DNA from: a virus
Lineage: Duplodnaviria; Caudoviricetes
Length of the DNA stretch: 64,000 nt
Strand: one strand, 5' to 3'
Virus record (IMG/VR): IMGVR_UViG_3300043009_000039
Coordinates: 1-64,000 of that record
Shown: positions 46,032 to 62,551 of the stretch, in pieces
Layout of the letters: the number at the start of each line of letters is the position of its first letter
Numbering within the stretch: position 1 is the first letter of the stretch
Program-made: the position numbers and the translations under genes
The notes under the pieces: generated by a model
Seen by the model: the letters and a program-made list of their open reading frames with translations, nothing else
Databases searched by the model: none
What the model was told of the DNA's origin: nothing

Positions 46032-46076
46032 AACTTGTAGTTTTTAATTGGTTTGTGCAGTCGGGTTGCCCCGACT

Positions 46077-46511: not shown

Positions 46512-46751
46512 CTAAACATAGCGCACTGCCCGGCCTTTACTTTTCGACAGCTGTTGGCGCAACAATTTTTTGTAGCCTCTTATATTGCATTCCATATTTC
46601 TGACGCATTCGTATGCCTCCGCTTTAGTCCAGAAGTAATATGTGTATTGCCAATACAAATCATATACAAACCACATTTTACCGCCTGAAACATCACACAG
46701 CCCTGCAAATCCAATGTTTTTACCTTTGTTGAATGATTCTAATAGTGCCAT
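46512..46751 (-). CDS. Early cassette 28, hypothetical
   Basis: ORF with hairpin/leader. Confidence 0.7.
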   Translation of the reverse strand: MALLESFNKGKNIGFAGLCDVSGGKMWFVYDLYWQYTYYFWTKAEAYECVRNMECNIRGYKKLLRQQLSKSKGRAVRYV

Positions 46752-46814
46752 AATATCTGAGTTTTATTGGTTGAACATGGTGAGCGGTCGTAAGTCCTAC
46801 AACCGCTCTTTAAG

Positions 46815-47360: not shown

Positions 47361-47415
47361 AATGTATAAGTTTTATTGGTTAGTAGTAGCGGGCGGGACG
47401 TCCCACCCTTAAAGG

Positions 47416-47799
47416 TTAGAATTGAATGACCGAGCGTTTGTATTCCCAATGCCTTGCGTCCATAATCCTTGTCCGTTTCAGCTGACACAACGTGTATATC
47501 TTGTGAATATACTGAATGATTGCGGCTGTCGGGCGGGCGTCCTTTATGCAGTCCGCATTCTCTTCCGCAAACTTTCTCTCGTCAAACTCGGCGGAGTCTA
47601 CGATTCTCTTTATGCCCGTGTTTACCATATCTCCGTCGTCATACAATACGTAGCAATAGACTTCGGAATAATTATCGGACAAAGAGCGCAGGGCGTTTTT
47701 CTGATATGTTTTCTCGTTTTGTTTCGCCGTTTTCTTTTCAGCTCCCTCGGGATTAATGTTGAGTAACGGCAGTCTGTCATAATACATATTCTTTTTCAT
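47416..47799 (-). CDS. Early cassette 26, hypothetical
   Basis: ORF with hairpin/leader. Confidence 0.75.
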   Translation of the reverse strand: MKKNMYYDRLPLLNINPEGAEKKTAKQNEKTYQKNALRSLSDNYSEVYCYVLYDDGDMVNTGIKRIVDSAEFDERKFAEENADCIKDARPTAAIIQYIHKIYTLCQLKRTRIMDARHWEYKRSVIQF

Positions 47800-47848
47800 A
47801 ATCGTAAGTTTTGTTAGTACTCGTAGTCGGCCCGCAGACCGACTTTGG

Positions 47849-48190
47849 TCAATAAACGCTCTGTGGGTAATTTTTTAACGCCCAATCAATCGCTGATTGG
47901 CACTCTTTACGGGTTTTCCACTTAACGCCCACGCCGTTTAATTTTTGCGGTATGCCATGAAGATAGTCATATACCACCCACCATATTTTGCCGTCCAACG
48001 CTTCGCGTTTGATTGGCCTGAATCTGCCGAACAGTGCGCAGGAGCATTCAGCGAGTGTTCCTTTGCATTTAAATTCTCCGTTCAGATACGCGGTGTAGTA
48101 CATATCGCCCATACAGTTCCAATGGCGGTCAATTTCTCCGTATTTACCGCGATATTCATTCTTGGTGAACCATTGTGCATAATTTTCCAT
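47849..48190 (-). CDS. Early cassette 25, hypothetical
   Basis: ORF with hairpin/leader. Confidence 0.75.
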   Translation of the reverse strand: MENYAQWFTKNEYRGKYGEIDRHWNCMGDMYYTAYLNGEFKCKGTLAECSCALFGRFRPIKREALDGKIWWVVYDYLHGIPQKLNGVGVKWKTRKECQSAIDWALKNYPQSVY

Positions 48191-48242
48191 AATCGTAGCT
48201 TTATTGGTTAGATATTGTGGGCGGCTCTCGCACGCCCTTTGT

Positions 48243-48527
48243 TTAGAGTCTGCTGTAATATTTCAACAACGCGGCACAAATGTAGTAGTCATTGTAGTAT
48301 CGCATCCATCCGCCGCTTATGAGCATATCGTTTATCTCGCTGTCACGGAGCTTTCTTGTTTCCCGCTCTTCGATATACGATACTTTCATTGTTTCCTCAT
48401 CAACCGCCTCGATTTTGAACAACCCGTGACACAAACGGTCGTCGTCATCATCCGTGAGTTGTTTGAGGGCGTCATAAACATCTTCTGCACTGTATGCAAA
48501 TTCTACGGTTTTTTCTTTTGTTTCCAT
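48243..48527 (-). CDS. Early cassette 24, hypothetical (start METKEK)
   Basis: The leader motif fixes the start at 48527. Confidence 0.75.
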   Translation of the reverse strand: METKEKTVEFAYSAEDVYDALKQLTDDDDDRLCHGLFKIEAVDEETMKVSYIEERETRKLRDSEINDMLISGGWMRYYNDYYICAALLKYYSRL

Positions 48528-48574
48528 AATTCTTGTTTTTATTGGTTGGTTGCGGGCGGCATTAACCGCCACAA

Positions 48575-48859
48575 TTAAGGCAATGTTACGTAATAAAATC
48601 CGCACCCCTCTTTGATAAAATTAAAACCGTTCTGTCTAACCCAGTCAGCAAAGCCGATAAAATATTTACCGTTTACCTCCAAATACTCCCCGTAAATGGT
48701 TTTCCCGATTTTCGCGTCCGGTCTATCGAGGTAAAGATATTGAAATTCAATCCGTACACGAGTTTTTCCTTTCATAAAGAGTTCTGTGAGGTACTTTTCG
48801 ATTTGGCTGTAATCCAAATCTTTCGTCAAATCTGCTTTAATCTTTTGTGCTAAGTTCAT
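48575..48859 (-). CDS. Early cassette 23, hypothetical
   Basis: ORF with hairpin/leader. Confidence 0.75.
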   Translation of the reverse strand: MNLAQKIKADLTKDLDYSQIEKYLTELFMKGKTRVRIEFQYLYLDRPDAKIGKTIYGEYLEVNGKYFIGFADWVRQNGFNFIKEGCGFYYVTLP

Positions 48860-48909
48860 AATATGTAAGTTTTAGTTGGCAATTGTTAGCGGTCTGTGAC
48901 CGCTATCTT

Positions 48910-49238
48910 TCAATCGGTTAAAAAAACGTGATTCATCAATTGTTTCGGCACGCTTAACAGAACCGGGACAACCCACACGCCCCCGAAGGATTCATTATCA
49001 TTCAGCGCTTCGGCAAGCTCTTCGTATGAAAAAATCCAAGCTCTTCTTCGGAATAAATCTCTTCCTCGGTAAGATTGAATGTTTTTTCCATCAATTCAAG
49101 CGCGTCAATATTGTCATCGAACTTCTCCAAGTAGAACGCTTCAACGAATTTGCTTCTTTCGATTTCTTTACCGTTAACCGATATAGGACATACGAGAAAG
49201 AACGGTTCGTAACCGTCATGAGTCATAGTAATCTTCAT
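48910..49238 (-). pseudogene. Early cassette 22, frameshifted at a T6 tract (49029-49034)
   Basis: Frame 0 stops at 49002; the -1 frame continues SYEELAEALNDNESFGGVWVV... to a TGA at 48910 next to the following hairpin. Confidence 0.6.
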
Positions 49239-49292
49239 AATTATAAATTTTAGTTGGTTAATAATGTGGCCGGCCCGAAAGCCAGCCAATGT

Positions 49293-49577
49293 TTATGAAA
49301 GAGTGAAGTTGCCACGGTATAGCTTGAACACCATCGCTTGCGCTGTGTCGTACAATTTATCAAGGACTTGATTCTGCTCCTTTCGATGAGCCTTGTATTG
49401 CTCTTCGCTTGTAATCACTCCTTCAGCGATGAGCCTTTTTGTCTCGGCAACCTGCTTGGAGATAATCGCAATCTCGAGTCGTCTGTACTGGTCTCTGATT
49501 TCGAATATCGACTTGCCATTCGGCTGTAACTTCACCCATGAGGCTAATTTTTTGCCTACATTGAATCTCTGTTTCAT
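49293..49577 (-). CDS. Early cassette 21, hypothetical
   Basis: ORF with hairpin/leader. Confidence 0.75.
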   Translation of the reverse strand: MKQRFNVGKKLASWVKLQPNGKSIFEIRDQYRRLEIAIISKQVAETKRLIAEGVITSEEQYKAHRKEQNQVLDKLYDTAQAMVFKLYRGNFTLS

Positions 49578-49629
49578 AATTTCTATTTTATTGGTTAAAC
49601 ATTGGCGAGCGGAGTAATCCGCTCATTGA

Positions 49630-50040
49630 TTACCACTTAACTTGTTCTACCTCGTCAAGCTCTTTGCGAATCGTGTCTATCAGCTTTCGAGTCAAAGTAA
49701 CATCTTCGCACCCATACTCTATAACGGACGGACATTGGTTAATCAGCGATATTACGCCTTGTGTAACCATTAAGACCATGTAATCTTCAGGGTCGTCAAA
49801 CGGGTCTGTATAAGGGCCGCTGAGAACATCCCTTTCAAATTTCCAATAAGCCGACGCATCGGCACGCCATTCGCACAAGTATTCCAAGGCAAGCTCTTCG
49901 GACTCGGTGAGCGTGCCGTTGTAGTTTATGTCGTCCATAATGTAATCGCCTATATCACTTGCTTTGACTTCCATATCTTCTTTCCAAGGCAACTGCATTT
50001 TAGCCATTTCGCGGCAGTAATCAGTGAAATTCTTTTTCAT
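49630..50040 (-). CDS. Early cassette 20, acidic hypothetical
   Basis: 136 aa, D/E-rich. Confidence 0.75.
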   Translation of the reverse strand: MKKNFTDYCREMAKMQLPWKEDMEVKASDIGDYIMDDINYNGTLTESEELALEYLCEWRADASAYWKFERDVLSGPYTDPFDDPEDYMVLMVTQGVISLINQCPSVIEYGCEDVTLTRKLIDTIRKELDEVEQVKW

Positions 50041-50089
50041 AATTGTAAAGTTTTAAGTTTAGTTGTGAGCGGTAATAACCGCTCATTGA

Positions 50090-50632
50090 TTAGAAAGTGA
50101 GCACAAATTTATCATACGTATCCGAGTCCGCCACCTGCTCCATCTTCCCGCCAAGAAAGACGGCAACACCATAGTAGCAGCTCATCCCGCAACCGCTTTC
50201 AAAGTATGGTCGGAATCCGCCGTTACCGTAGTGTGCGCCAAGCGGGGCTTTTTTAGCTTTTCTTCTGCAACGCCACAACATTCCGCGGCATAACTGATTC
50301 ATTACGTCGGCTACCACGGTGGATTTTTTGTCGTAGCCCCAACCGCTGCAAGTGGCAGAGGCTTGCTTCCAATGTCCGTCGGAATACTGCGCCCATGCGG
50401 TGGCGTGCGGGTTGTAGCCCCAAGTTTTGTTGCGCTTCCATTCGATGTCGATTTCAAGCCGCTTTACGGGAAGCTCTTTATCCATCTGCTCAAATTCATC
50501 GTTTGCTCTCTTCAGCTCACCTCGTATGCCTCGCATCGTGGCTTTCTTTGAGTACTTTACGATATGTTCGATACACTTTACGGTAAGGTACGGATAGTCG
50601 TTTCTCAGGCTCTTTAATTCTTTGCGTGTCAT
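50090..50632 (-). CDS. Early cassette 19, hypothetical
   Basis: 180 aa; EWKRNKTWGYNP...SGWGYDK.S motif. Confidence 0.8.
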   Translation of the reverse strand: MTRKELKSLRNDYPYLTVKCIEHIVKYSKKATMRGIRGELKRANDEFEQMDKELPVKRLEIDIEWKRNKTWGYNPHATAWAQYSDGHWKQASATCSGWGYDKKSTVVADVMNQLCRGMLWRCRRKAKKAPLGAHYGNGGFRPYFESGCGMSCYYGVAVFLGGKMEQVADSDTYDKFVLTF

Positions 50633-50686
50633 AATTTCAAGTTTTTAATTGGTTAGTAATGGGTGTCGGGTCGCCCCGACAAATAA

Positions 50687-51031
50687 TCAAAACGTTTCGG
50701 AATGAACCCAAACGTTCCGTATTTCTATACGGATATACATTTCTCCGTTCTGATTAAAAACGTACATGTCGGTAAACTCATTCCATAGGTGAGTCCCATC
50801 GTGCCCGTTATGCACGGCTGTTATTTTAGTTATGTCGCCCCACGTCAGACGCTCTGCGATTTTACTATTCATAAAGTCACGCGCAAGCGCTTCGGTCTTG
50901 AAAGTGAAGCTGTCGATATTCGGCATGCGGGTTATTTTCGACGGTGTGTAATTTCCGCACATTTCGCCCAATCCTGAATAAGTTTCTTCAATGATACTTA
51001 CCACATAAACGTATTCTCTTTTATTTTCCAT
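50687..51031 (-). CDS. Early cassette 18, hypothetical
   Basis: ORF with hairpin/leader. Confidence 0.75.
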   Translation of the reverse strand: MENKREYVYVVSIIEETYSGLGEMCGNYTPSKITRMPNIDSFTFKTEALARDFMNSKIAERLTWGDITKITAVHNGHDGTHLWNEFTDMYVFNQNGEMYIRIEIRNVWVHSETF

Positions 51032-51065
51032 AATTTAAAAGTTTAATTGGTTGATTGCAAGGGGA

Positions 51066-51386
51066 TTACTCCCCTTTTTTGAACAGCTTGATTAAGACTT
51101 TGTCGCCTCTCTTGTAATAGCAGTGTTCGATTTCAAAGTGACTGTTCAACCGCCACTCCATTTCACCGAACGCTTTTGCGTATTCATTGTTGTCGTCGGC
51201 TTTCGAATAGTAGAAGAGAAGCTCGTCCGAGCCGTATTCCCATCCGAGAATTACGGGCGTTCGGCATATAAAGCCAACTGCACGGCATTCTTCGAAAATA
51301 TACTTGTCGTCGAATACCAAATTGCAAATCTTCTTCACTAACTTGTCGTCGTAGTCAAATACTGCGGGATTCAATTCTTCTTTCAT
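51066..51386 (-). CDS. Early cassette 17, hypothetical
   Basis: ORF with hairpin/leader. Confidence 0.75.
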   Translation of the reverse strand: MKEELNPAVFDYDDKLVKKICNLVFDDKYIFEECRAVGFICRTPVILGWEYGSDELLFYYSKADDNNEYAKAFGEMEWRLNSHFEIEHCYYKRGDKVLIKLFKKGE

Positions 51387-51432
51387 AATCTTTAAGTTTA
51401 ATGTTGGTTGCGGGCGGAATACTCCGCCCTTT

Positions 51433-51759
51433 TCAATCTTTGTGGTAAAAGGTTAGAAAGTAATTGTAGCTCGTTTTCCGAGTGTCTACGTAAATATCTT
51501 CGGGTAACGACTGTTTGACCGCCTCGATTCTGTCCTCCAACCGTTTCATGGAAGCCACGCTGATTGGCGATTCGGCCACGCATATCTTCAGGCGGTTGGT
51601 CGTTACGGCGTATGTGGCGCAGATTGGGACATTTGCGGCATAGCCGACCGACATTTCCTGCGACACTACTCTTGTGTCGAGGCGGCGGCCCTCGTCGAAC
51701 AACTCATCATAGATTTCACTTACCGAGATTGATTTTCCGTTTAATAATGCTCTCATCAT
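51433..51759 (-). CDS. Early cassette 16, hypothetical
   Basis: ORF with hairpin/leader. Confidence 0.75.
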   Translation of the reverse strand: MMRALLNGKSISVSEIYDELFDEGRRLDTRVVSQEMSVGYAANVPICATYAVTTNRLKICVAESPISVASMKRLEDRIEAVKQSLPEDIYVDTRKTSYNYFLTFYHKD

Positions 51760-51809
51760 AATTCAAAAGTTTTTAGGTGTGCGGTAGGCAAAGATAGCCT
51801 ACCTTTTGT

Positions 51810-52454
51810 TTAATACGGCGTCCCATCTTCAAGAAACTCGTATTCGTTCAAATTCAGTTCTTCTTCGACCGCCTCGTCCGAATAGCCCCAATCCACGTCG
51901 TCACCGTAGGCATCGGCCAAGGCGTCCACGCTTTTCTGTATCAAATCCTCCATCGTCGTATCGTTGTCGGGATGCTTCATGTAATCGACAATCGGCTGTA
52001 TCACCTCATAGTCGCAGCATACGCCCGTGAGCGGATAACTTGCCTCGGCGTCGTCGTACATTATTCGGCTCTTGCGCTGTTTCTTGTAGTCGCCCCGATA
52101 GAATGTACGCGGCTTGACCAAATACGGCATGATGTTGTTGCGTATGTACCGTTGAAGCAGTTTGCCGGACAACTCTTCAAGGCAGAGGTATTCGCTACCG
52201 TCCTCGGTGTCTATCATGTAGCACCAAGAGTCGTCGTTGAACTTCGGGCTGAACCATGTGCGTCCGCGGTCGTCTTTCACGTCGATACGTATGTCAAGCA
52301 GCTTCTCGAAAGCCTTGAGCGTTCCGATATAGTCGTCGGCGATACATTCTTCGTGATATGCGGCGCATTCGCCTCGCTTTGATTCAATCGCTTTTTTCTT
52401 TGCTTCTTCGGAAAGTTCGTCGTACTTGTAAAGTTTTACTTCTAAGGTTCTCAT
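51810..52454 (-). CDS. Early cassette 15, acidic protein of the widespread Y.YDELSEEAK.KAIE family
   Basis: 214 aa; LYKYDELSEEAKKKAIE start, NEYEFLEDG end. Confidence 0.8.
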   Translation of the reverse strand: MRTLEVKLYKYDELSEEAKKKAIESKRGECAAYHEECIADDYIGTLKAFEKLLDIRIDVKDDRGRTWFSPKFNDDSWCYMIDTEDGSEYLCLEELSGKLLQRYIRNNIMPYLVKPRTFYRGDYKKQRKSRIMYDDAEASYPLTGVCCDYEVIQPIVDYMKHPDNDTTMEDLIQKSVDALADAYGDDVDWGYSDEAVEEELNLNEYEFLEDGTPY

Positions 52455-52501
52455 AATTTCAAGTTTTAAGTTGGTTAATCGCGAGGGGCGAACCCCTCAA
52501 T

Positions 52502-52729
52502 TTACAAGACCTCGTGAGGCAGAACAGTGTCACGCGATACAACGTCGAACTCATGTGTGGAGCCGTTCAATTTAAGCCCGTAAATGTGCGCGTATTGGAT
52601 TTCTCTCGCCCACATGGATAGATTATCCAACTGCATCCTAAAACGCCTTAGAGCGGCATTTTTAGAGGTAAATATGGCTTTATAGCCGCAGGTCTGTCTG
52701 TCGAAAATTCTCAATTCATAAATTATCAT
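52502..52729 (-). CDS. Early cassette 14, hypothetical
   Basis: ORF with hairpin/leader. Confidence 0.7.
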   Translation of the reverse strand: MIIYELRIFDRQTCGYKAIFTSKNAALRRFRMQLDNLSMWAREIQYAHIYGLKLNGSTHEFDVVSRDTVLPHEVL

Positions 52730-52778
52730 AGCTTCTAAGTTTTATTGGTTGGTTGCAGACGGATTGCTCCGTCTTGAT

Positions 52779-52970
52779 TCAATATCCCTGCAGGTACGAC
52801 GGGGCTTCGTCGTCCTCGGTTTCACAAGCTCTGTGACGTTCCACAATTTCACAGTTGCAACCGTAGTTCATGAGCAGTTCTTCGCGCACGTCCGACGCTT
52901 CTTCGTATGTGTCGAAACAATCTTCAATGCATCCCGCGGCTTTATTCCAAAGTTCAAATTCAGTGTACAT
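52779..52970 (-). CDS. Early cassette 13, small acidic protein
   Basis: The leader fixes the ATG at 52970. Confidence 0.7.
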   Translation of the reverse strand: MYTEFELWNKAAGCIEDCFDTYEEASDVREELLMNYGCNCEIVERHRACETEDDEAPSYLQGY

Positions 52971-53013
52971 AATCAATTAGTTTTAGTTGTGAGCGGATTG
53001 CTCCGCCCGTGAT

Positions 53014-53532
53014 TCATTGTTGACCCCAATAAGTCCATGTTTTAACCTTTGACATTCCGTAGCGTTTGAGGTACGTCCGAAGTCGTTTCTCGAACTTGTC
53101 GCGTTCTTCGCGAACAAATCGTTCAAGCGGCTCGTAATCCTCTTCTTTCGGTTCGATACAGCTGTCGTAGTTGTGCCCCGAAATTCCGTAGATGTTCGCC
53201 TCTTTATAGGCGGTCATTTCGTAATGGTAGAGGTAGACTTCGCGTTTGGCGATACACTCGAGCATCCAGTCGTATTCGCGAAGATTCTCTTTCATGAAGT
53301 AGTCTTCGCTTGTACGCGCGTATTCAGCTTGTTCGACCGCTCTGTTATAATCGAAGCTGTCGTCAAAGCAGAACTTTGTCTCAATGCGCGGCTTGCCTAT
53401 AATTACGATTTTACCGTCGTCAAGTTTGATTGCATTCGAGAATCCCCGCATCATATATTCGGGGTTAAGGCCCATCTTTTCATATTCGCGCATGATTTCA
53501 TCCTGCAATTCATGTTGCTTGATATTCTTCAT
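53014..53532 (-). CDS. Early cassette 12, hypothetical
   Basis: 172 aa. Confidence 0.8.
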   Translation of the reverse strand: MKNIKQHELQDEIMREYEKMGLNPEYMMRGFSNAIKLDDGKIVIIGKPRIETKFCFDDSFDYNRAVEQAEYARTSEDYFMKENLREYDWMLECIAKREVYLYHYEMTAYKEANIYGISGHNYDSCIEPKEEDYEPLERFVREERDKFEKRLRTYLKRYGMSKVKTWTYWGQQ

Positions 53533-53633
53533 AATTCTAAGTTTTAGTTGGTTAAACAGTACGCGGCAACAGCTCGGGCCGCCGCCGCGTTTTTTAAGGC
53601 TGTACTATACAGCCCTCGCCAAATACCTCTCGG

Positions 53634-53969
53634 TTAATTCTTATACACCCTTTGGTTAATTCTTTTCACATACAGCGACCACGTTGTAAAGTGATTGGTT
53701 TCAAGGCATTGGCACGTCACACGGCCTATCAGGTCGCAATAGCCCTTTGTTTCGGGCGTGTTCATGTAGGATTCCGTGATTCGGTAAGTTCTTTCGGGTT
53801 CGCCGGGCGCTCTGTAAAACCACGAGCCGCAGCGCACACCGTATTCGATTTCCCGCATCTGTTCCTTTGCTTTCTTCAAACTTGTAAATGCAAATGTCGG
53901 AATGGAGCATGATTGCCACGTACTGCCTTCAGTCCACTGATGTTCGTTGATAATATAAATATAATCCAT
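53634..53969 (-). CDS. Early cassette 11, hypothetical
   Basis: ORF with hairpin/leader. Confidence 0.75.
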   Translation of the reverse strand: MDYIYIINEHQWTEGSTWQSCSIPTFAFTSLKKAKEQMREIEYGVRCGSWFYRAPGEPERTYRITESYMNTPETKGYCDLIGRVTCQCLETNHFTTWSLYVKRINQRVYKN

Positions 53970-54030
53970 AATGATAAGTTTTATTGGTTTAACACGGCAG
54001 ACGGTCTTTCAACCGTCTTTTTGCGGATAA

Positions 54031-54402
54031 TTACTCATCTTCGTCGTCGTAGCTCATCTCGATACAGTCGTGCCAATCGCCGTCGGCGTATATTTCGTCG
54101 GAGTAATAATCCGCCTCCCACTCCACGTCCTCTTCACTTGCAGACACAAATCTTCCGTTGGCGTCCTGCAGGATATAGCGGTCGGCGAGGTTCACTTGTC
54201 CGCCCCGCAGGTCGCGCACGAGTTCCATCGGATTGTCTTTGTATCGCTGAATATTAAAGAAATCTTCGTTCAGCTCATGCCACACACAATCGTAGTATCT
54301 CTGATTCTCGAAATATCGGTTCAGCAGGGCCAATCGTTGGCCATGTGTCAGACTCTTAAATTTTTCTTTCCATGCTTCGCGGCGAGAATATTCTTTTTCC
54401 AT
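54031..54402 (-). CDS. Early cassette 10, acidic hypothetical
   Basis: 123 aa, D/E-rich C-terminus. Confidence 0.75.
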   Translation of the reverse strand: MEKEYSRREAWKEKFKSLTHGQRLALLNRYFENQRYYDCVWHELNEDFFNIQRYKDNPMELVRDLRGGQVNLADRYILQDANGRFVSASEEDVEWEADYYSDEIYADGDWHDCIEMSYDDEDE

Positions 54403-54464
54403 AATTCATAAGTTTAATCGGTTAATAATTGCAAGAGGTCGGTCGGGAAACCAACCTCTTCGGC

Positions 54465-54770
54465 TCAGACAAGTTCAATGTCGATTCCATACGGAAGCGA
54501 TTCGCTATTTTCGTAATAGTCGAATTTATACGTAGGTCTAAGGCCCAGTTCGCGTTTACATAAGCGTTTTTCTATCACCTGCTTTATCTTCCCCTCGTCG
54601 ATTACTTTCGTAAGTTCGACTTCGTAATGTGGCGTAGACGTACCGATTGTTTCGTGCGTGATTCGTGCAATTGCAACAAGTCCGTGGAACTTGTCATAAA
54701 AATAGATGCCGCTCGCCGCGAACACTACGTACATTTCAACTCCGTAATTCTTGGTTCTTAAAAATTCCAT
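54465..54770 (-). CDS. Early cassette 9, hypothetical (start MEFLRTK)
   Basis: The leader fixes the ATG at 54770. Confidence 0.7.
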   Translation of the reverse strand: MEFLRTKNYGVEMYVVFAASGIYFYDKFHGLVAIARITHETIGTSTPHYEVELTKVIDEGKIKQVIEKRLCKRELGLRPTYKFDYYENSESLPYGIDIELV

Positions 54771-54832
54771 AACTGTAAATTTATTGGTTAGCTGTAAGAG
54801 GTCGCGTGACGACACACAACCTCCGATTCGTT

Positions 54833-55102
54833 TCATTTGTCAAGCGTGCAAGTCGCATAGTAAGGCGAAAAGCAACCGTCTTTATAAAGCGACGCCGCAT
54901 AGCCCCGACGGGTCTTGTAGACTTTCACGCAGCCCGATTCATACGAGCTTCGTTCTTTGCACACAAAGCCCCCTACCGCCTTGTAGGTTTTCGGCTTCTT
55001 TTCTTTCGGTTTGATTGAACCCGCGTAATGCATTGTCACGCCCGTAAACAGTTCGCCGTTTACCTTAAAAGGCTTTTCAGAGGTAAGTTTGTAAGTTTTC
55101 AT
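54833..55102 (-). CDS. Early cassette 8, basic hypothetical
   Basis: ORF with hairpin/leader. Confidence 0.7.
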   Translation of the reverse strand: MKTYKLTSEKPFKVNGELFTGVTMHYAGSIKPKEKKPKTYKAVGGFVCKERSSYESGCVKVYKTRRGYAASLYKDGCFSPYYATCTLDK

Positions 55103-55162
55103 AATTCAGTAGTTTTATTGGTTCGTGGAAGAGGGCGTGTTTTCGGGCACACCCTCCGTAAT

Positions 55163-55288
55163 TCAGTCGATTTCGACCGTCGAATCGTTCAAATCCACGT
55201 GCGCGTATAAATCTTCGGCAAAGTCGGGTTCTATAAACTCTTCAAATACGCGCAATTCGCCTTGGAAATAAATAGTTCCGTCAAGCAT
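55163..55288 (-). CDS. 41-aa acidic peptide coupled to cassette 7
   Basis: MLDGTIYFQGELRVFEEFIEPDFAEDLYAHVDLNDSTVEID; stop abuts the next hairpin. Confidence 0.6.
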   Translation of the reverse strand: MLDGTIYFQGELRVFEEFIEPDFAEDLYAHVDLNDSTVEID

Positions 55289-55466
55289 TTTTGTTTCCTC
55301 CCTTCTTTTCGTCGGTCGGGTCTATTATTTCCCCTATCGGAAACACGCCCATAAGGCCCGACAGAAACGCCAAATAGCAAACATCCGTGCCCATAAAGTT
55401 GTAGAACACAAACACGGCGAAAGCTTCAAAGAATACAAACAGAAGAAACAGATAAATCGTTCTCAT
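55281..55466 (-). CDS. Early cassette 7, small membrane protein
   Basis: 61 aa, two hydrophobic helices. Confidence 0.7.
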   Translation of the reverse strand: MRTIYLFLLFVFFEAFAVFVFYNFMGTDVCYLAFLSGLMGVFPIGEIIDPTDEKKGGNKNA

Positions 55467-55529
55467 AATTCATAAAGTTTTATTGGTTGGTAACAGTAAG
55501 CGGTTCGACCCCGAAAGAGCCAAACCGCC

Positions 55530-55790
55530 TTAATTCATTCCCATCCCCACGGACACAGCTCGCCCGCGGGGGGTAATCTGCCACGACAGTTCGTTCCTGC
55601 CGTCGTAGATAGTCCATCCGATGCCGTTGTCGCCCCTTTTATGCAGGGCGATATGCAGACAGCGGCGCACGATTCGCTTCAGTTCGGTTGAGTGTAAAGT
55701 CTTACAGAAACTTTCACTCGCGATAATTGCGGAAAACTCACCCTTTCGGGCAAAGTTCGTCCATGCGATTTCATCGTAAAAGGTTTTCAT
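55530..55790 (-). CDS. Early cassette 6, hypothetical (start MKTFYDE)
   Basis: The leader fixes the ATG at 55790. Confidence 0.7.
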   Translation of the reverse strand: MKTFYDEIAWTNFARKGEFSAIIASESFCKTLHSTELKRIVRRCLHIALHKRGDNGIGWTIYDGRNELSWQITPRGRAVSVGMGMN

Positions 55791-55851
55791 AAATAGTTTT
55801 ATTGGTTGGTTCGGAGAGGGTTCGCCCCGATACGGTTTGAACCCCCTGATT

Positions 55852-56037
55852 TCAGGCGAACATATCGTACAGTTCTTCAAGGCGTGCCTTTGCGTCCTCG
55901 ATTCGGGCGAATAGAGTCGTTCGGTTCCAGTACTCGAAGTGATTCTTTTCACCTACTGTTTCAAACGAAATTTCGGCTACTTGTCCGTCGTGTTCGTAGC
56001 TGTTCCATGCCACGTAATAGTAAGTTTTTGCTTTCAT
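55852..56037 (-). CDS. Early cassette 5, hypothetical
   Basis: ORF with hairpin/leader. Confidence 0.7.
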   Translation of the reverse strand: MKAKTYYYVAWNSYEHDGQVAEISFETVGEKNHFEYWNRTTLFARIEDAKARLEELYDMFA

Positions 56038-56105
56038 AATTTATTAAGTTTTATTGGTTGGTTAATTCGCAGACGGTTCGACCCCGAAGAATCGAACCCC
56101 CTGAT

Positions 56106-56543
56106 TCAGATTTGGTCCAGAAAGTCGGCCAAGTCTTTTTCCGTAGCTTTCAGTCCGAGCGCACGTTTGCGCATCAGATATTCTTTGATTCCGAATCGGG
56201 ATATAAGAACATCCCGATTTGATTCGTCCTGAAAGAGTCGGTCGATAAGTTCGTCTTGCATAGCAAGCTCGTACTTCAGATTTTCGGCCTCCTGCTTCGA
56301 CGCTTCCAGTTCTTTGCGAGCGTCCTCCAACGCTTTCGCAGTCCCTTTGAGGTCTGCGATAATCGCATAGTTCTTCCGCGCTTCGTTTACCGCGGACACA
56401 AACAAACCCTTTGTGTTTTCAGGGAGTTTGCTCCAAATTTCACAGAACATATTTTTATCTAACTCGCAGAACATATAGATATAGTTCGCAACTTTGTACT
56501 CTTCGGCCTTGCAGCCTCTTTCGATAAATTCATTAAGTAACAT
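56106..56543 (-). CDS. Early cassette 4, coiled-coil hypothetical
   Basis: 145 aa; YMFCELDKNMFCEIW motif followed by heptads. Confidence 0.75.
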   Translation of the reverse strand: MLLNEFIERGCKAEEYKVANYIYMFCELDKNMFCEIWSKLPENTKGLFVSAVNEARKNYAIIADLKGTAKALEDARKELEASKQEAENLKYELAMQDELIDRLFQDESNRDVLISRFGIKEYLMRKRALGLKATEKDLADFLDQI

Positions 56544-56608
56544 AACAGTAAGTTTTATTGGTTAAACGTGGAAAGAGGCTTCAGGATTAAGCCCGAAACC
56601 TCTCTAAT

Positions 56609-56794
56609 TTAAAATTCGAAGTCTGTAAATACCTTGAATGTTCCTTTATGAAACGATTCGTAGTTCGTGTCGTCAAATTTGTAGACGGAATACATTTTGG
56701 TCGCACGGTCGTATTCGCCGCGCACCCAAACAACGGCGGACGATTCTTTCATTTTAAAGAGTTCGCCCTTTTTAAGTTCTGATAATTTTTTCAT
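56609..56794 (-). CDS. Early cassette 3, small hypothetical
   Basis: 61 aa (LSELKKGELF...VWVRGEYDR). Confidence 0.75.
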   Translation of the reverse strand: MKKLSELKKGELFKMKESSAVVWVRGEYDRATKMYSVYKFDDTNYESFHKGTFKVFTDFEF

Positions 56795-56839
56795 AATTCG
56801 TTTGATTGATTCGTAAAGGGTCGAATTGCCCCGACCCGA

Positions 56840-57193
56840 TTAAGCAAAGTAATTCTTTACAGTTTGGTAGTCCAGTCCGTAACGCTTACGTATTCGCGCA
56901 ATTTCGGCGTTAAATTCGCGTGCTGAGTCGAAACAGCACAGTTCGAGGGCTTTAATCAATTCAAGCCCGTAAAGGCTCGGATTATTCACCTCGATAGCTC
57001 GCAGTTCGCCCCGACGGTTTCGGGCGCAATTATCCACGAATTTTATCGTTTCTTTGTACCCTTTGCCCGCCCCTTTCTTTTTTCGGCTCGATACGACGTA
57101 TTTGCCCCGATTTTTCGGTTCAGGCTCGCACGGTTCAGGCTCGCACGCTTTTTTAGCTTTATAAAGCCCTTCATAGTACTCTAATAAGTTCAT
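56840..57193 (-). CDS. Early cassette 2, hypothetical (downstream of the hammerhead)
   Basis: 117 aa. Confidence 0.7.
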   Translation of the reverse strand: MNLLEYYEGLYKAKKACEPEPCEPEPKNRGKYVVSSRKKKGAGKGYKETIKFVDNCARNRRGELRAIEVNNPSLYGLELIKALELCCFDSAREFNAEIARIRKRYGLDYQTVKNYFA

Positions 57194-57214: not shown

Positions 57215-57273
57215 AGTCCGACGCCCAGTAGTAAGGGCGTTTCGTCGCAATTCTCAGCGACTCTTCAGGGACT
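57215..57273 (-). ncRNA. Type I hammerhead ribozyme; predicted cleavage after GUC, between 57220 and 57219
   Basis: Minus strand: AGUCC CUGAAGA GUCGC-UGAGAAUU-GCGAC GAA ACGCCC-UUACUACU-GGGCGU C GGACU; all core nucleotides and three stems present. Confidence 0.88.
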
Positions 57274-57531
57274 TTAAAACTGCATCGTTTCAAAAGATAC
57301 AATTTCAAAGTAATTCAAATTCACCTCGATTTTCGGGCACAGTTTTTCCCCGAAAAAGTACAGTTTAACGCCAGTAAAGCGCATGAAACGGTTTATAAGC
57401 CGCTCAGGCGTGTCTTGATAACGGTCGTTGAAATACGATACGACGAACCCGTTTTCAACTCTTAATCTCGGTTCAATCAGGGCAAATTCAAGCCCTGATT
57501 CTTTTTCGCGTAATACGATTTTGTAGTTCAT
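57274..57531 (-). CDS. Early cassette 1, hypothetical (downstream of mini-tRNA C)
   Basis: 85 aa; its stop abuts the hammerhead. Confidence 0.7.
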   Translation of the reverse strand: MNYKIVLREKESGLEFALIEPRLRVENGFVVSYFNDRYQDTPERLINRFMRFTGVKLYFFGEKLCPKIEVNLNYFEIVSFETMQF

Positions 57532-57558
57532 AACAGTAAGTATTTTAGTTCAACATAG

Positions 57559-57606
57559 TAAGGGCGCGGGGGTTCGAACCCCGTAAAAATTCCACAATTC
57601 GCCCCT
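57559..57606 (-). ncRNA. Anticodon-less tRNA-like element C (48 nt)
   Basis: AGGGGCG / 16-nt linker containing GG / CGGGG-TTCGAAC-CCCCG / CGCCCTT-A: 7-bp acceptor stem plus 5-bp T-stem with a canonical T-loop. Confidence 0.7.
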
Positions 57607-58140
57607 GCATCGGTTTACGTCAACGATGCACTTTGACGTTTGCCCCTTAATTCAGGGGCTTAATAACCAAAAACTTAATTATGTTTTGCCGCTACCTTGT
57701 TACGTGCTCGGCACGCCTCCTGCATTTACTTTCATAGTTCGTCCAGTACATAGGACGGACGGCCAACTAAGCGCAATTATATTAGCGCAATTCGTTGACG
57801 TTTGGATAATTCATTCACTGCAGTTGTCAAGACGGCTCAAATATTTTTATCGTTAAATCCTAAAAACGTCCTGCATCAACCGCTAAGCCGGAGCGACTTT
57901 TTTGCTCGAAAAAAGCGCAATTTTTCCCCTTTCAAGATTTTACCCTTGTCCAGTTCGGTTTTTTAATTCTCTTAACAATTTGACCCTCTTCCTTAACAAA
58001 ACGTTACACTTGGTAACTTCGATTAACTCTTTTACAACCCGATTTAAACTTTTTTATGATTTCGGGCGTCCTACTTGAGGAAAAGTCTCTTTTTTGTTAA
58101 TTTGGATAGTCAAATTATTAAAATTTGCCAAAGAACTCCG

Positions 58141-58197
58141 TTAGAGTTCTGACCAACTCTAACGCTACAAAAGTAGGTATAATCGATTATATGCAAA
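58141..58197 (-). promoter_or_regulatory. Early promoter TTTG-N18-TACTTTTG followed by an 8-bp 5' hairpin (58141-58162)
   Basis: -33 at 58194-58197 and -7 at 58168-58175 on the minus strand; TTAGAGTT/AACTCTAA hairpin. Confidence 0.55.
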
Positions 58198-58483
58198 GGT
58201 CAATTTTCCCACAAAGTTAGCTAATTTGTCGGTAATTACTTATCTTGTTGAATATCAATAAGTTAGGTTATTAAGATAGTTGTAGTTAGTTATTACCTAT
58301 TATATACAACTGTAGTAAGTACAATTACAGATTACGGATTAATCGACGCCGTATAATTGCCACAATTGCGACGCCTCAAGATGCAATTATAGTAGCACAC
58401 TAATAATTACAGTTGGTACACTTTACCCCCTTGAGTTGATGCATCAACTTTGCCCCGCCCCTTTGTTTCGTCGACGTCGTGAA

Positions 58484-58545
58484 ACTACCTACTACCTACT
58501 ACCTACTACCTACTACCTACTATCTATATAAGTAAGTAGTAGGTA
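58484..58545. repeat. Tandem (ACTACCT)x5 plus one degenerate copy and an inverted partial copy
   Basis: 58484-58525 tandem; AGTAGTAGGTA at 58535-58545. Confidence 0.9.
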
Positions 58546-58744
58546 CTTTGCGAGCGGACGACGCACCACCGCGTTTTTTGGTCAAAAATAGAAGAAAATT
58601 AGCTATTTTGGCGTAAAAGTCACTTTCCGAAAAACAGAATAATTTTAAGGGAAAAAAGAGTATATAGGTATAATAGAAACTACCTACATTTGTGCTGTAG
58701 AATGAAACAAGCCCCTGCAGGGGCAAACTTAAATACTTACAATT

Positions 58745-59512
58745 ATGAAAAAAGAAACAAAGAAAGCTACAAAGGGGGCAAAGAAAGCCACGGCAAAGAA
58801 AGCCGAAAGCGAAAGCACGGCGTTAACCGTTATTGCCGAAACAAACAATAACGCCGAAACTGAAACAGTCGACGCCGAAACAGTCGAATGCACGACGTTG
58901 GTACTTTGCACGGCAAAGAAAGCAAAAAAGGAAAGCGAAAGCGAAAAAAAGGAAAGCGCAAACTTTCGAAAAGCTTTCAAGACTGAAGCAAACAGTTACG
59001 GCGCGGCTATCCGTAACATGCAGGCAATTGCAAGCAAAGGAAATAAGCGGGCGCAAAAGATATTAGCCGCTTTCGGCTTGTCGACAAAATCGAGCGCAAA
59101 GGAAATTAGCACGGCCCGCGCCGCTATCTTTGCCGCGTATCCTTTTGCAACGGCTGAAGGTACTCTTTGCCGTTTTCGCTTACTGAATACTGAAGAAAGC
59201 GTTTTTTGTGGCCTGAACAAAAAGCTTTTCGGCGTTTTTGAGGCGGCGAAAAGTTGGGGCGAAATTCTTGATGAAAGCTACATTAGCACGGTTAAGGGCC
59301 GCGCGCAAGCTATTATCGAGCCGCTAACCGTCGAAAGGGAAAGGGGGGTTATTTCCTTTGTATACGCGCCTTTATATTGCATCGACGGCGCGAAAGTAGG
59401 CAAAGATTATAGCCGCGAATATACGGCGTATCTTTGCGCGAAAAGCGACGCTAATAAAGCGGCAAAGAATGCACGCGCGAAAGCTTTCGAAGAAAGCACG
59501 ACAAACGAATAA
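58745..59512 (+). CDS. K/A-rich hypothetical protein (histone-like basic N-terminus)
   Basis: 255-aa ORF with an A-rich leader and a TACATTTG box at 58685-58692. Confidence 0.65.
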   Translation: MKKETKKATKGAKKATAKKAESESTALTVIAETNNNAETETVDAETVECTTLVLCTAKKAKKESESEKKESANFRKAFKTEANSYGAAIRNMQAIASKGNKRAQKILAAFGLSTKSSAKEISTARAAIFAAYPFATAEGTLCRFRLLNTEESVFCGLNKKLFGVFEAAKSWGEILDESYISTVKGRAQAIIEPLTVERERGVISFVYAPLYCIDGAKVGKDYSREYTAYLCAKSDANKAAKNARAKAFEESTTNE

Positions 59513-59724
59513 AGCACGATACAACACACACAAAGGGGGCAAAGATGCAATATTCTTTGCCCCTTTTCTTTTGCCCTTATACTACCTATTACGACGCCTC
59601 GAGCGCTCGAAAGCACGTACTACCTACATACTCTATCTTTTCAACCACTACAAAAGGGGGGCTTAATCCTTACTTTTCATCATGATGAAACAATAGATAC
59701 CTACTTACTTTCTCTATTGATATT

Positions 59725-59763
59725 CTCTTTACTCTTTACTCTTTACTCTTACTCTTACTCTTT
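59725..59763. repeat. Tandem (CTCTTTA)x3 (CTCTTA)x2
   Basis: Read directly. Confidence 0.85.
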
Positions 59764-60242
59764 TCGCTTTACTCTATCTATCTATCTATATATATACGTT
59801 TGTACTCTTTATTCTCGACAATAGGATATTAGCTTATATGTTTCCGTTTGTTTCGGTTGGTATGTTTTCGGAAAATGTTTTTTGCAAGCTGTTTTTTTCG
59901 ACGCCTTGAGGCCCTTTGCTTACTTTCTCTTTGCCGTCTAATTACCCCCCTTTCAACGTCTATTTTCACGCAATTACGCCCCTTTATTGTCTACCTACTT
60001 ACTACCTACTTTTGCCCCTTTGCGCCCCCTTTTCGGCTTAATAACGCCTACAATACGACCGCTTCAGCCGCGTTTTACGCCCTTTTCAATGCAAGGGGGG
60101 GGGCGGCAAAGCCAGGACAAACAGGGGGGGCTACCTTCTCTCAAATTTTTTTCTGTTTTTTTTATTTTCAGGACTATCTATATGCTTCTTTCTTTACTGC
60201 TTACCTTTCTTGCAGATTTTTTTATTTTATTTTTTCATTACA

Positions 60243-60373
60243 GCTAATCCCCCTTCTTTCTATGCTAATTCCCCTTCTTTTCTTCTGAATTTCTGCGACA
60301 TGATTTCTCGGATGCTTTGTTCTCGCTTGGGATTTTCTTGCAATGATACGCCTTGTTCAAATTTCTGCGACAT
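60243..60373. repeat. 21-bp imperfect tandem (60243-60283) and direct repeat AATTTCTGCGACAT (60288-60301, 60360-60373)
   Basis: Read directly. Confidence 0.75.
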
Positions 60374-61048
60374 TGCATCGGCGACAAGGGACTGCTGCGA
60401 TTTTGGAACGAAAAAAGCGATTGTACTTAGGATAGATAAAGCTATTAAGCAAGATTGAATAAATTTCAATAAAATTAACGCCAATCTATGATAGGGACGA
60501 CGCGGCTGCGACATTGGGAGGCTGATACTATGGCGCAGAGCGAAGCAACGAGAGCAAGGACGCTGAAAAACGATTCAGGGCGCGATTTCAGACGTTTGGC
60601 TGAACAACCGTCCGACTTAGACGCGATAAGCGATTCTGCGCGATTTTAGGGGGCTTTTCAGGGCATATTCGCGTCTGCGTCCGACTCTGCCGTCTGAATC
60701 GCTTGACGGGAACGAAAAAGAGGGCGCAAGGACGACCCGCCGAAGGAGGAGGAGCGACTGCCCGAAGAGCGAACGAATTGACGCAGGAGCGGAGGCGACG
60801 AGGCGGGGAGGGAACATAACGGGCGCGAAGCGGGCAAGCAAAAGAGGCGGAGCTTTTCTTTTTAGATGCGAAGCATCTTTTTCTTTATATAATATATATA
60901 TTAATACAGAAGTATATGATTAAGTATAGAGAACTCTATATAGGAGAGTTTAATTCTTTCTTTTTTAGGGGGATGTAGGGGGACATTTTTCTTTCTTATT
61001 AGAGAACCTGTCAGCAAGCGTGTTTTTTTGTCGCTGTTTTCCGAGTGG

Positions 61049-61254
61049 AACTTTTAGGAAAAGTTGGTCTTTATCTTATCCGACCGCTGTTTTTCGGTTT
61101 CCTCCTCTTCTGTCGTGTTCCAAGCGCTTCATTGTCAGCCAATTATAACTTTTTCCAAAAGTTCGGTTCGTGTTTTTACCCCTCTTCTCCCGTTAGATTT
61201 TTCGCGTTTCATACGTTGCTGATTGTCAAGCAATTGTAACTTTTCCCAAAAGTT
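61049..61254. promoter_or_regulatory. Three perfect 17-bp palindromes AACTTTT-N3-AAAAGTT (operator-like)
   Basis: 61049-61065, 61147-61163, 61238-61254; a one-mismatch copy at 62008-62024. Confidence 0.75.
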
Positions 61255-61310
61255 GGTCTTATTCTGTTGTCGTTGTTTTGAAAATCGCAATATATTTTTT
61301 CTTCTTCGGC

Positions 61311-61341
61311 GTTGCTGTTTTAAAAAATCCGATTACATTTG
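61311..61341 (+). promoter_or_regulatory. Promoter GTTG-N19-TACATTTG for the KilA-N gene
   Basis: -7 box at 61334-61341. Confidence 0.55.
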
Positions 61342-61368
61342 TGGCATAACCAAAACCGTTTTGAACCT

Positions 61369-61989
61369 ATGGAAATAATCAAGAGAGAGATGTTCGGCGC
61401 CGAGCTTCGTCAGCGGGCCGACAATGATTTTCTTTGTGTGACCGATTTGGTCAAGGTGTGCAACAGTCGTCGACTTGCCCGCGGAGGCGGATACGCGACC
61501 GTGCATCAATGGATAGCCAGCAAACAGACTTCCGAATACCGTGCCCTGCTCCGCCCGATTTACGGAGAAACCTATACCGCCGAACTTGGGCGCGGCAAGA
61601 CCTCGTGGGCGCATCCCCTGCTCTTCATCCGACTCGTCATGATGTTTGAACCGAGATTCAGAGTCGAGGAATACCCTTGGCTTCTTGAATGCCTCGTGAA
61701 ATACCGCCTCGCCGGGTCTGTCGAGGAGCGCGGATTTATCGGTGCGCTCTATGCGAACTCCACCTCGCAGTCGGCTTTTATCCGCGAGTACACATACTTC
61801 GATGCGTTGATTCTGAATGTAGTGGGCGCTCTGAATTGGCACGAAGCCACACCGTCGCAGACCGAATACCGCTTCGTCATATACGACTACATCACCCAAT
61901 ACTGCGGCGTGTTTTACAAAAACAACATGGAGGCGGTGCGATTGGGGCTTCTGAAAGCGAAGGAATGGAAACTTTCTCTTACGGATTAG
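61369..61989 (+). CDS. KilA-N domain DNA-binding protein
   Basis: LRQRADNDFLCVTDL...QWIASKQTSEY...GRGKTSWAHPLLF; ATG at 61369. Confidence 0.75.
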   Translation: MEIIKREMFGAELRQRADNDFLCVTDLVKVCNSRRLARGGGYATVHQWIASKQTSEYRALLRPIYGETYTAELGRGKTSWAHPLLFIRLVMMFEPRFRVEEYPWLLECLVKYRLAGSVEERGFIGALYANSTSQSAFIREYTYFDALILNVVGALNWHEATPSQTEYRFVIYDYITQYCGVFYKNNMEAVRLGLLKAKEWKLSLTD

Positions 61990-62037
61990 CCATTTTTACC
62001 TTACTGAAACTTTTTCTAAAACTTTTCCTACATTTTC

Positions 62038-62068
62038 TTTGAATTTGAGAAAAGTGTCTTTATATTTG
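62038..62068 (+). promoter_or_regulatory. Consensus Bacteroidetes promoter TTTG-N19-TATATTTG
   Basis: TTTG 62038-62041, TATATTTG 62061-62068. Confidence 0.7.
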
Positions 62069-62235
62069 TATCACCATTTGTAAGGATTGATTTGTTTCTC
62101 CCCGACGAGAACGCGGGGGGTGCCCGTAAAAGGGCGCAAAGTCATGAATCTGTGAAGATTATAAAGTTCTCTGCAATTTTTCTCCGATTTTGCCATGCGG
62201 TGCCGTTTTTTGATTAGGATTTTTAGGCATCGCGA

Positions 62236-62286
62236 GGGTGCGGCGCAGTCGGGCGCTTATCGGGTTCGAATCCCGCGCATCCACCA
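62236..62286 (+). ncRNA. Anticodon-less tRNA-like element A (51 nt) with G3.U70, A73 and encoded CCA
   Basis: GGGTGCG / GCGC-AGTCGG-GCGC TTAT / CGGG-TTCGAAT-CCCG / CGCATCC-A-CCA. Confidence 0.75.
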
Positions 62287-62394
62287 TGCGGCGACTTAGA
62301 CCTTCAAGTTTGTTAAGTGTTTAATTAAATGGGTGTTAGTATGCTTATCTTGATTACTTGGAGTATTTTGGCAATGGTCGAAGTTGTCGCAGAC

Positions 62395-62443
62395 GGGAGC
62401 GCCGCGCGGGCGGTCGTCGAAGGTTCGAGTCCTTCCGCTCCCA
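62395..62443 (+). ncRNA. Anticodon-less tRNA-like element B (49 nt)
   Basis: GGGAGCG / CCGC-GCGG-GCGG TCGTC / GAAGG-TTCGAGT-CCTTC / CGCTCCC-A. Confidence 0.75.
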
Positions 62444-62501
62444 CTTGGAATCAGGACATATCTCGACTGTCCTCTCGGTAAAGATGAAGAAACTCTATGT
62501 G

Positions 62502-62551
62502 AGAATCGTCTGGCGCGTGTAGTCGAGAACCGCGTTGGGCGATTCTTTTTT
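62502..62551 (+). terminator. 16-bp hairpin terminator with T6
   Basis: AGAATCGTCTGGCGCG / CGCGTTGGGCGATTCT followed by TTTTT. Confidence 0.7.

Follow-up and report, generated by a model that had tools for sequence, protein, structure and literature searches.

The early transcript of phage T7 is cut by RNase III at structured intercistronic sites, which yields single-gene messenger RNAs (mRNAs) that keep a 3′ hairpin. In the mascRNA and MEN-beta system, a cut by RNase P makes the 3′ end of the upstream RNA, and the small fold that is released receives CCA. Plant mitochondria carry t-elements, which resemble transfer RNA (tRNA) and share a GGTTCRANYCC motif; their positions match the ends of mRNAs, and they are interpreted as signals for RNases P and Z (Forner et al. 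2007, PMC1920247). Hammerhead ribozymes flank prophage genes, and a role in dividing the long transcripts of phages into gene-length mRNAs has been proposed for them (Perreault et al. 2011, PMC3088659). In haloviruses HF1 and HF2, a hammerhead lies 13 nucleotides (nt) upstream of the first open reading frame (ORF) of an early transcript, and a mapped 5′ end fits its cleavage site (PMC3088659). Here we describe a locus that combines elements resembling both t-elements and hammerheads in the genome of an uncultured phage, IMG/VR virus record IMGVR_UViG_3300043009_000039. The stretch analyzed (the window) comprises bases 1–64000 of this 85,821-bp record, which CheckV rates as complete. Its RNA elements are three tRNA-like folds without an anticodon arm (mini-tRNAs A, B and C), a hammerhead motif, and a series of hairpins in front of small genes. 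All of the RNA elements that a first-pass annotation of the window had proposed lie where it placed them, and they are not chance occurrences.

Three tRNA-like elements without an anticodon arm

Mini-tRNAs A, B and C are folds of 48–49 bases that correspond to a tRNA minus its anticodon arm (Table 1). Each has a 7-base-pair (bp) acceptor stem, a directly abutting 4-bp hairpin with GG at the end of its loop, a linker of 4–5 nt, a T arm with the sequence GGTTCGAnnCC, and a discriminator A. Within this common design, mini-tRNA A has the hairpin GCGC-AGUCGG-GCGC and a T stem of 4 bp plus a mismatch, and it alone encodes CCA and carries the G3.U70 wobble. Mini-tRNA B has the linker UCGUC and a 5-bp T arm. 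Mini-tRNA C has the linker UUUA and the 5-bp T arm CGGGG-UUCGAAC-CCCCG; its 3′ end lies 27 nt from the start codon of ORF1.

Standard tools pass over these sites. ARAGORN (run on the window) and Rfam at its gathering thresholds make no call at A, B or C, and a search of the whole genome with RF00005 found no canonical tRNA. At relaxed thresholds, the three sites match the Rfam models for mascRNA, tRNA and transfer-messenger RNA (tmRNA) only with the anticodon arm deleted. The mini-tRNAs share the 7-bp acceptor stem, the GTTCRANYC-type T loop and the discriminator with canonical tRNAs and lack the anticodon arm; mini-tRNA B scores 20.7 bits against RF00005 (threshold 29), with 33 model positions deleted. 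Scores against the mascRNA-menRNA family RF01684 are 27.8 bits for C and 18.1 bits for A. Because even the former is short of the threshold of 42.5, we speak of a resemblance to this family and not of membership. The tmRNA model RF00023 gives 12 bits (threshold 47). The elements do resemble the tRNA-like domain of tmRNA in the G3.U70 pair of the acceptor stem (in A), the T arm, the reduced D region and the missing anticodon arm. Unlike tmRNA, they have neither a tag reading frame nor a series of pseudoknots, and ARAGORN calls no tmRNA.

A covariance model built from mini-tRNA B alone, and run with filters off over both strands of the whole 85.8-kb genome, detects A at 29.5 bits (E 4e-5) and C at 25.9 bits (E 4e-4); the next match is at E 0.9. 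MAFFT misaligned the three sequences, and a model-based alignment was used instead. In this alignment, all positions that should pair do so (100% pairing) and 9 of 16 pairs show double changes. With two elements of a related phage added to give five distinct sequences, pairing is 97% and 12 of 16 pairs show double changes. An alignment fitted to structure favors high pairing, a bias shared by controls in which the pairing partners were slid by 1 to 3 columns and which show ∼50% pairing. The first-pass annotation had described three anticodon-less mini-tRNAs, and both the single-sequence model and the base-pair covariation bear it out. This sequence evidence indicates that the mini-tRNAs are real, structured and under selection.

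The closest parallel is with t-elements. In both cases, non-canonical tRNA-like folds with a GGTTCRANYCC T-arm motif lie inside mRNA precursors beside coding regions; here, C is preceded on the coding strand by a promoter-like site and followed by ORF1, and the motif is present in all three mini-tRNAs. Unlike t-elements, the mini-tRNAs belong to a bacterial virus and have a uniform minimal design without an anticodon arm, the D-like hairpin being stacked directly on the acceptor stem. They also share their slots with a hammerhead and hairpins, and their processing ends are predicted, whereas t-elements have mapped transcript ends. The mascRNA model is the best Rfam match for C and for an element of a relative described below (L014). 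Unlike the window elements, mascRNA is part of a eukaryotic nuclear long non-coding RNA and keeps a small anticodon-like stem.

The hammerhead motif and the leftward gene cassettes

A hammerhead had been claimed in front of ORF2, and as a motif it stands, with the full core, three stems and a minimum-energy junction. It occupies the 80-nt gap between ORF1 and ORF2, where the order of parts along the minus strand is stem I, CUGAAGA, stem II, GAAA, stem III, GUC, stem I. The stems are AGUCC/GGACU (I, 5 bp), GUCGC/GCGAC (II, 5 bp) and ACGCCC/GGGCGU (III, 6 bp). The motif has the core of RF00163 (C3 U4 G5 A6 N7 G8 A9, G12 A13 A14 and the NUH triplet) and its architecture, namely three stems with G10.1-C11.1 and A15.1-U16.1 closing pairs and an open stem I. 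A descriptor requiring the core, the UH step and minimal stems matches the genome at 57273–57215 only. In 200 first-order Markov genomes it gave 0.01 loose matches each, and none of the 200 had a match with stems of 5, 5 and 6 bp. The unconstrained minimum-energy fold of 86 nt at the site is a three-way junction plus an upstream hairpin (z-score −3.7). Besides the upstream hairpin, the site has a possible extension of stem I (AGUUU/AAACU). A 5′ hairpin aligns to the RAGATH-1 model (RF03152), though the threshold of that model is not reached, and Rfam scans of 8.5 kb and 13.8 kb did not report the hammerhead. We conclude from these sequence features that the hammerhead is probably genuine. Its predicted self-cleavage, 3′ of C57220, would leave a 26-nt leader with a 5′-OH on ORF2. 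As with prophage hammerheads, the motif has the consensus form and is located between genes of a polycistronic phage unit. Unlike them, it is present in a single copy, scores below threshold for all Rfam hammerhead models, and has a mini-tRNA in the adjoining slot.

The genes of the leftward array follow a uniform cassette of structured element, conserved leader and AUG. In the first cassette the element is mini-tRNA C (27 nt before the AUG), in the second it is the hammerhead (26 nt), and in most of the others it is a plain hairpin. Short-looped GC hairpins of 7 to 10 bp, with a folding energy of −11 kcal/mol or better, occupy 27 of the 33 gaps at 44.4–57.2 kb. The pattern seen in the first-pass annotation, which gave ∼31 gene-preceding hairpins, thus broadly holds. 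Each hairpin is followed by AACCAAUAAAACUU, a few bases and AUUAUG, the leader being A-rich and conserved. The hairpins have no U tract, and no other ribozyme or Rfam family was found in the array gaps at E<2. The positional equivalence of mini-tRNA C, the hammerhead and the hairpins is the best internal argument for a common role at gene boundaries, and the three kinds of slot fit such a role. T7 differs in relying on one host enzyme and long double-stranded sites; at only 7–10 bp, the array hairpins are too short to be typical RNase III substrates.

The leader directly upstream of mini-tRNA C is itself structured. It contains a hairpin at 57660–57641 and another at 57639–57617 (ACGUCAA...UUGACGU). 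The loop sequence GCAUCG (57629–57624) is complementary to CGAUGC (57612–57607), which directly precedes the acceptor stem of C, and a pseudoknot abutting this stem is possible.

Two further observations concern the cassette leader. A complete cassette head (hairpin, TAATAACCAAAAACTTAATTATG) lies on the opposite strand at 57641–57735 of the window (plus strand), pointing rightward, ∼35 nt from mini-tRNA C. It opens an ORF of 17 codons only; its equivalents in the related phages L012 and L014 open ORFs of 8 and 2 codons. Such tiny ORFs suggest that the leader motif may serve a role other than translation, or that antisense RNA may pair with the array leaders. In addition, the sole plus-strand AACCAATAAAACTT of the genome, an exact 14-mer match to the array leader in six cassettes, lies outside the window (G000 83312–83325; L002:312–325), flanked by two genes of the minus strand. 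Transcription of that strand at this point would produce the exact antisense of the array leader.

Counterparts in other phages and layout of the locus

Relatives of the window phage were found through its SbcC-like protein, the only protein that gave graded relatives. A blastn search against the phage collection found no close DNA relative, and locus searches with single proteins (the KilA-N protein, ORF1 and the SbcC-like protein) returned nothing. The nearest relative of the KilA-N protein is on an 886-bp contig. Homologues of the antirepressor led to an unrelated mobile element. When contigs from viruses and metagenomes were scanned with a profile of the SbcC-like alignment, only distant phages without the divergent layout were added. 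A weak model match in one of these distant phages is an ordinary tRNA-Cys.

Two relatives, L012 (56% identity in the SbcC-like protein) and L014 (51%), have the same divergent layout as the window. Conservation in position, which the first-pass annotation had named as a check, was found in both: a tRNA-like element precedes the first gene of the leftward array. In L014 and in L029 it is a 48-nt element, GGUGUGG...CCACACC, with the T loop UUCGAAU, and it ends 23 nt before the first array ORF. The equivalent slot of L012 is filled by a 79-nt element in which an acceptor stem of 7 bp is combined with a T arm and ACCA; since the match is weaker (16 bits), we grade it as probably tRNA-like. The first array ORF of L012 and that of L014 are homologues, neither is visibly homologous to ORF1, and no further homologues of these counterparts were found. 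Thus, the tRNA-like element follows the position and not the gene. The cassette layout likewise recurs in L029 and L012 with different hairpin sequences, which indicates that the form of the cassette is what is kept. The folds, their statistical significance, the covariation and these positions in relatives are direct observations.

On the rightward side, L014 has no mini-tRNA, and an A/B-like pair was not found in the relatives. Instead, L014 has a true tRNA-Met 3 to 10 nt behind a TATGTTTG box, upstream of a KilA-N/ANT gene, and this tRNA would head a rightward transcript. In mitochondrial punctuation, real tRNAs serve other genes, as this tRNA-Met may do. We also observed that GAACTATG occurs five times in L014 (1800–2330, minus strand) and three times in L012 (2180–3780, minus strand), near the array heads; ∼0.3 occurrences are expected, and the other strand has none.

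Similar elements occur beyond this group. We scanned IMG/VR with patterns that fixed the anticodon-less spacing and the acceptor stem of A or B, for which a rough estimate gives ∼0.03 expected chance matches. Each acceptor stem had one match, and both matches contain a D-like hairpin that the pattern did not specify. They are L036:3642–3691 (minus strand) and L035:10115–10162 (minus strand), on contigs IMGVR_UViG_2088090015_000089 and IMGVR_UViG_3300002460_000135. Both lie in gaps between co-oriented small genes, in phages that use Shine-Dalgarno sites and are unrelated to the window phage.

Table 1. Features of the locus (window coordinates)
Feature	Position	Strand	Description
Array of ∼32 small genes	44696..56839	−	27 gaps with GC hairpin and conserved leader
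ORF2, 117 amino acids (aa)	56840..57193	−	no family
Type I hammerhead motif	57273..57215	−	core CUGAAGA, GAAA, GUC
ORF1, 85 aa	57274..57531	−	no family, no relatives found
Mini-tRNA C	57606..57559	−	acceptor AGGGGCG/CGCCCUU, hairpin AAUU-GUGG-AAUU, without CCA
Structured leader directly upstream of mini-tRNA C	57607..57660	−	fold z-score −3.0
Candidate leftward promoter, Bacteroidota-type	58168..58197	−	TTTG, 18 nt, TACTTTTG; motif scan, consensus match
255-aa ORF	58745–59512		without relatives; between leftward and rightward sides
Non-coding, repeat-rich stretch, 1.85 kb	59513–61368		no credible gene
KilA-N gene	61369–61989		between leftward and rightward sides
Candidate promoter of the A/B unit	62039..62068 (box 62061–62068)	+	TTTG, 19 nt, TATATTTG; full-consensus match
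Structured leader, ∼163 nt	62073..62235	+	several hairpins
Mini-tRNA A	62236..62283, encoded CCA to 62286	+	acceptor GGGUGCG/CGCAUCC with G3.U70
Self-paired spacer, 108 nt	62287..62394	+	11-bp basal stem joins A 3′ end to B 5′ end
Mini-tRNA B	62395..62443	+	acceptor GGGAGCG/CGCUCCC, hairpin CCGC-GCGG-GCGG, without CCA
Intrinsic terminator	62501..62551	+	long GC stem then U6

The window genome encodes a large terminase, a 2,529-aa tape-measure protein, a sliding clamp, an SbcC-like ATPase, a primase-helicase, RecT and methyltransferases, which identify it as a tailed phage. ORF and family searches were applied to the window proteins and left ORF1 and ORF2 without a family assignment. The start regions of the genes lack Shine-Dalgarno sites and have AUUAUG after an A-rich leader, TAnnTTTG boxes precede several genes, and the closest named relative of the antirepressor comes from a Prevotellaceae metagenome-assembled genome. 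Together these features suggest a host in the Bacteroidota. On the leftward side, a promoter-like site with both boxes occurs only at 58168–58197, ∼555 nt upstream of mini-tRNA C.

The rightward order of hairpins, A, a 108-nt hairpin, B and a terminator is as the first-pass annotation gave it. The annotation had placed this series at the head of an early transcript; we find instead that A and B do not head a coding transcript and form a terminated, non-coding unit of ∼480 nt behind a promoter-like site of their own. Transcription that runs on from the KilA-N gene may also enter this unit. An ORF of 50 codons with a hydrophobic start (62329–62481, plus strand) spans the A–B spacer through B, and the Joint Genome Institute annotation called 46 aa of it as a gene; this ORF is probably spurious. 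The supposed non-coding control region between the two sides proved to hold a 255-aa ORF and the KilA-N gene. Repeats are frequent here, with six exact heptad repeats of ACTACCT, seven to eight repeats of CTCTTTA, and a TCTA run (58484–58526, 59725–59793 and 59513–61368). The cumulative GC skew has its minimum near 58–60 kb, and this repeat-rich region is possibly a replication origin.

Possible roles of the elements

We put roughly even weight on the proposal that the mini-tRNAs and the hammerhead act as cut signals, for host tRNA-maturation enzymes and for self-cleavage, respectively. Each cleavage, its timing and its purpose are inferred, the processing by analogy with t-elements and prophage hammerheads. 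RNase P requires a stack of acceptor stem and T arm and the corner formed by the T and D loops. Host RNase P would recognize mini-tRNA C and cut on its 5′ side, and RNase Z or an equivalent tRNA 3′ pathway would cut after the discriminator. These cuts would strip the ∼555-nt structured leader and leave ORF1 with a leader of 27 nt. The hammerhead, by cutting itself after C57220, would separate ORF1 from ORF2. The same enzymes would divide the A/B unit into five pieces: the leader, two tRNA mimics, the 108-nt hairpin RNA and a terminator piece. Mini-tRNAs B and C, which lack CCA, presumably suit RNase Z, and A, which has it, exonucleolytic trimming. The plain array hairpins are likelier to protect 3′ ends or attenuate transcription than to be cut sites. 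Processing would fall to host enzymes, as genes for RtcB, a CCA-adding enzyme and peptidyl-tRNA hydrolase are absent from the window genome. The reported non-tRNA substrates of RNase P include the M3 and C4 RNAs of phages as well as certain mRNAs (PMC11143913).

Several results weigh against this proposal. The hammerhead scores below the Rfam thresholds (17.3 versus 34 bits for RF00163 and 18.7 versus 56.3 bits for RF03152, in a search of a 181-nt stretch), its stem I is short, and a contact between stem I and loop II is at most putative. No hammerhead was found in the relatives with the type I descriptor and relaxed Rfam searches (types II and III via Rfam only). The T stems of A and of the L014 element have 4 pairs plus a mismatch, which gives an acceptor/T stack of 11 bp and not 12 bp. 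The plain hairpins bear no mark of cleavage sites, and a cutting role for them is not supported by their sequence. Between their promoter-like site and their terminator, A and B have no gene that a cut could set free; ‘punctuation’ is a weak description of this unit since it has no coding sequence to punctuate. The promoters are consensus matches only, the −7 motif being no commoner genome-wide than chance in the motif scan, and both they and the ‘early’ timing are predictions. Four further contigs of the window phage provide no test because they are 100% identical to it across the region and thus show no covariation. Finally, two contigs of the L014 lineage (L033:123–170 and L029:4931–4978) differ at four positions, all inside the 48-nt element, with ∼850 flanking bases identical. 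The D-like region contains two of these changes and the T-stem mismatch a third, and the fourth converts a U-A pair to U.G; they reflect either fast evolution or a recombination patch, and resemble rapid change more than plain purifying selection. Change faster than in the surroundings is unexpected of a passive cut signal and favors the view that a released RNA meets an evolving partner.

In that view the mini-tRNAs, at least A and B, are themselves the products, stable tRNA mimics that act on host machinery. The alanine set of A (G3.U70, A73 and CCA) could allow charging by alanyl-tRNA synthetase, which charges G3.U70 minihelices, and the mimics could titrate or divert tRNA-binding enzymes or serve as decoys for tRNA-directed anti-phage systems that read the acceptor end. 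We regard this as possible and on the whole unlikely. A and B do have their own promoter-like site and terminator, CCA and G3.U70 are encoded in A, an element on an unrelated viral contig has the same acceptor stem and discriminator (though the search pattern fixed those bases), and the substitutions in the L014 lineage cluster within the element as in an arms race. Yet B and C have neither G3.U70 nor CCA, and the search for tRNA-related enzymes among the phage genes found none. Moreover, C and the elements of L014, L012, L035 and L036 are placed between genes and shortly before start codons, a position that fits a role in cis. Another reading, which we consider improbable, concerns the A/B unit: A and B would excise regulatory small RNAs lying next to them, namely the 108-nt hairpin and possibly also the leader of 163 nt. 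Parallels are the microRNA precursors of murine gammaherpesvirus 68, which are linked to tRNAs, and engineered tRNA-guide RNA arrays. The spacer is folded more stably than all 200 of its shuffles (z-score −3.85), its basal stem abuts both mini-tRNAs exactly, and the unit is non-coding and terminated. Against this, complementarity of the spacer and leader to phage transcripts is at the level of chance, with only 11–12-mers (∼3.5 expected), and the relatives lack an A/B-like pair.

It is very unlikely, in our judgment, that the elements are decaying phage tRNA genes or DNA-level sites (attP or parts of an origin) with no function as RNA, and the hammerhead a chance look-alike. Independent decay would not arrive on five occasions at one exact architecture that also shows compensatory changes, and only ∼0.01 chance hammerheads are expected per genome. 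It is true that real tRNA genes occur at variable places in this phage group, that the region has iteron-like repeats and the minimum of cumulative GC skew, and that all the elements are below threshold in Rfam. An attP core, however, needs just the 3′ part of a tRNA, and the genome has no integrase gene. VIPR guide-RNA arrays (bioRxiv 10.64898/2026.04.26.720920) were also set aside: the genome has one run of three GGY/NN units, in a gene.

The first-pass annotation knew of no description of such a combination. This holds for the combination; it does not hold for the components, since prophage hammerheads (PMC3088659) and tRNA-like mRNA signals (PMC1920247) are both published. In the literature searched, we found no description of phage tRNA-like elements without an anticodon arm, of phage t-elements, or of processing of phage mRNA by RNases P and Z. 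We tentatively suggest, with some doubt, that unrelated lineages of tailed phages may use a modular RNA punctuation in which a mini-tRNA, a genuine tRNA, a hammerhead or a hairpin can be interchanged in front of a standard leader. Self-cleavage and the tRNA-maturation enzymes of the host would then convert long early transcripts to single-gene mRNAs whose leaders are short and defined. The tRNA mimics released in this way might double as decoys, and the alanine identity set on mini-tRNA A raises the question of whether phages make chargeable minihelices. If the proposed cuts occur, early gene expression in phages would include a layer of processing that is invisible to annotation; tRNA finders and Rfam report nothing here. 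The elements, at 48 to 59 nt, would then also offer compact natural tools with which to cut polycistronic RNA in Bacteroidota, which are short of expression tools. More broadly, small phage RNAs of a kind met repeatedly in metagenomes would gain a biological role, and tRNA punctuation, which is documented in organelles and for a small number of eukaryotic RNAs, would extend to bacterial viruses as a counterpart of the mitochondrial system.

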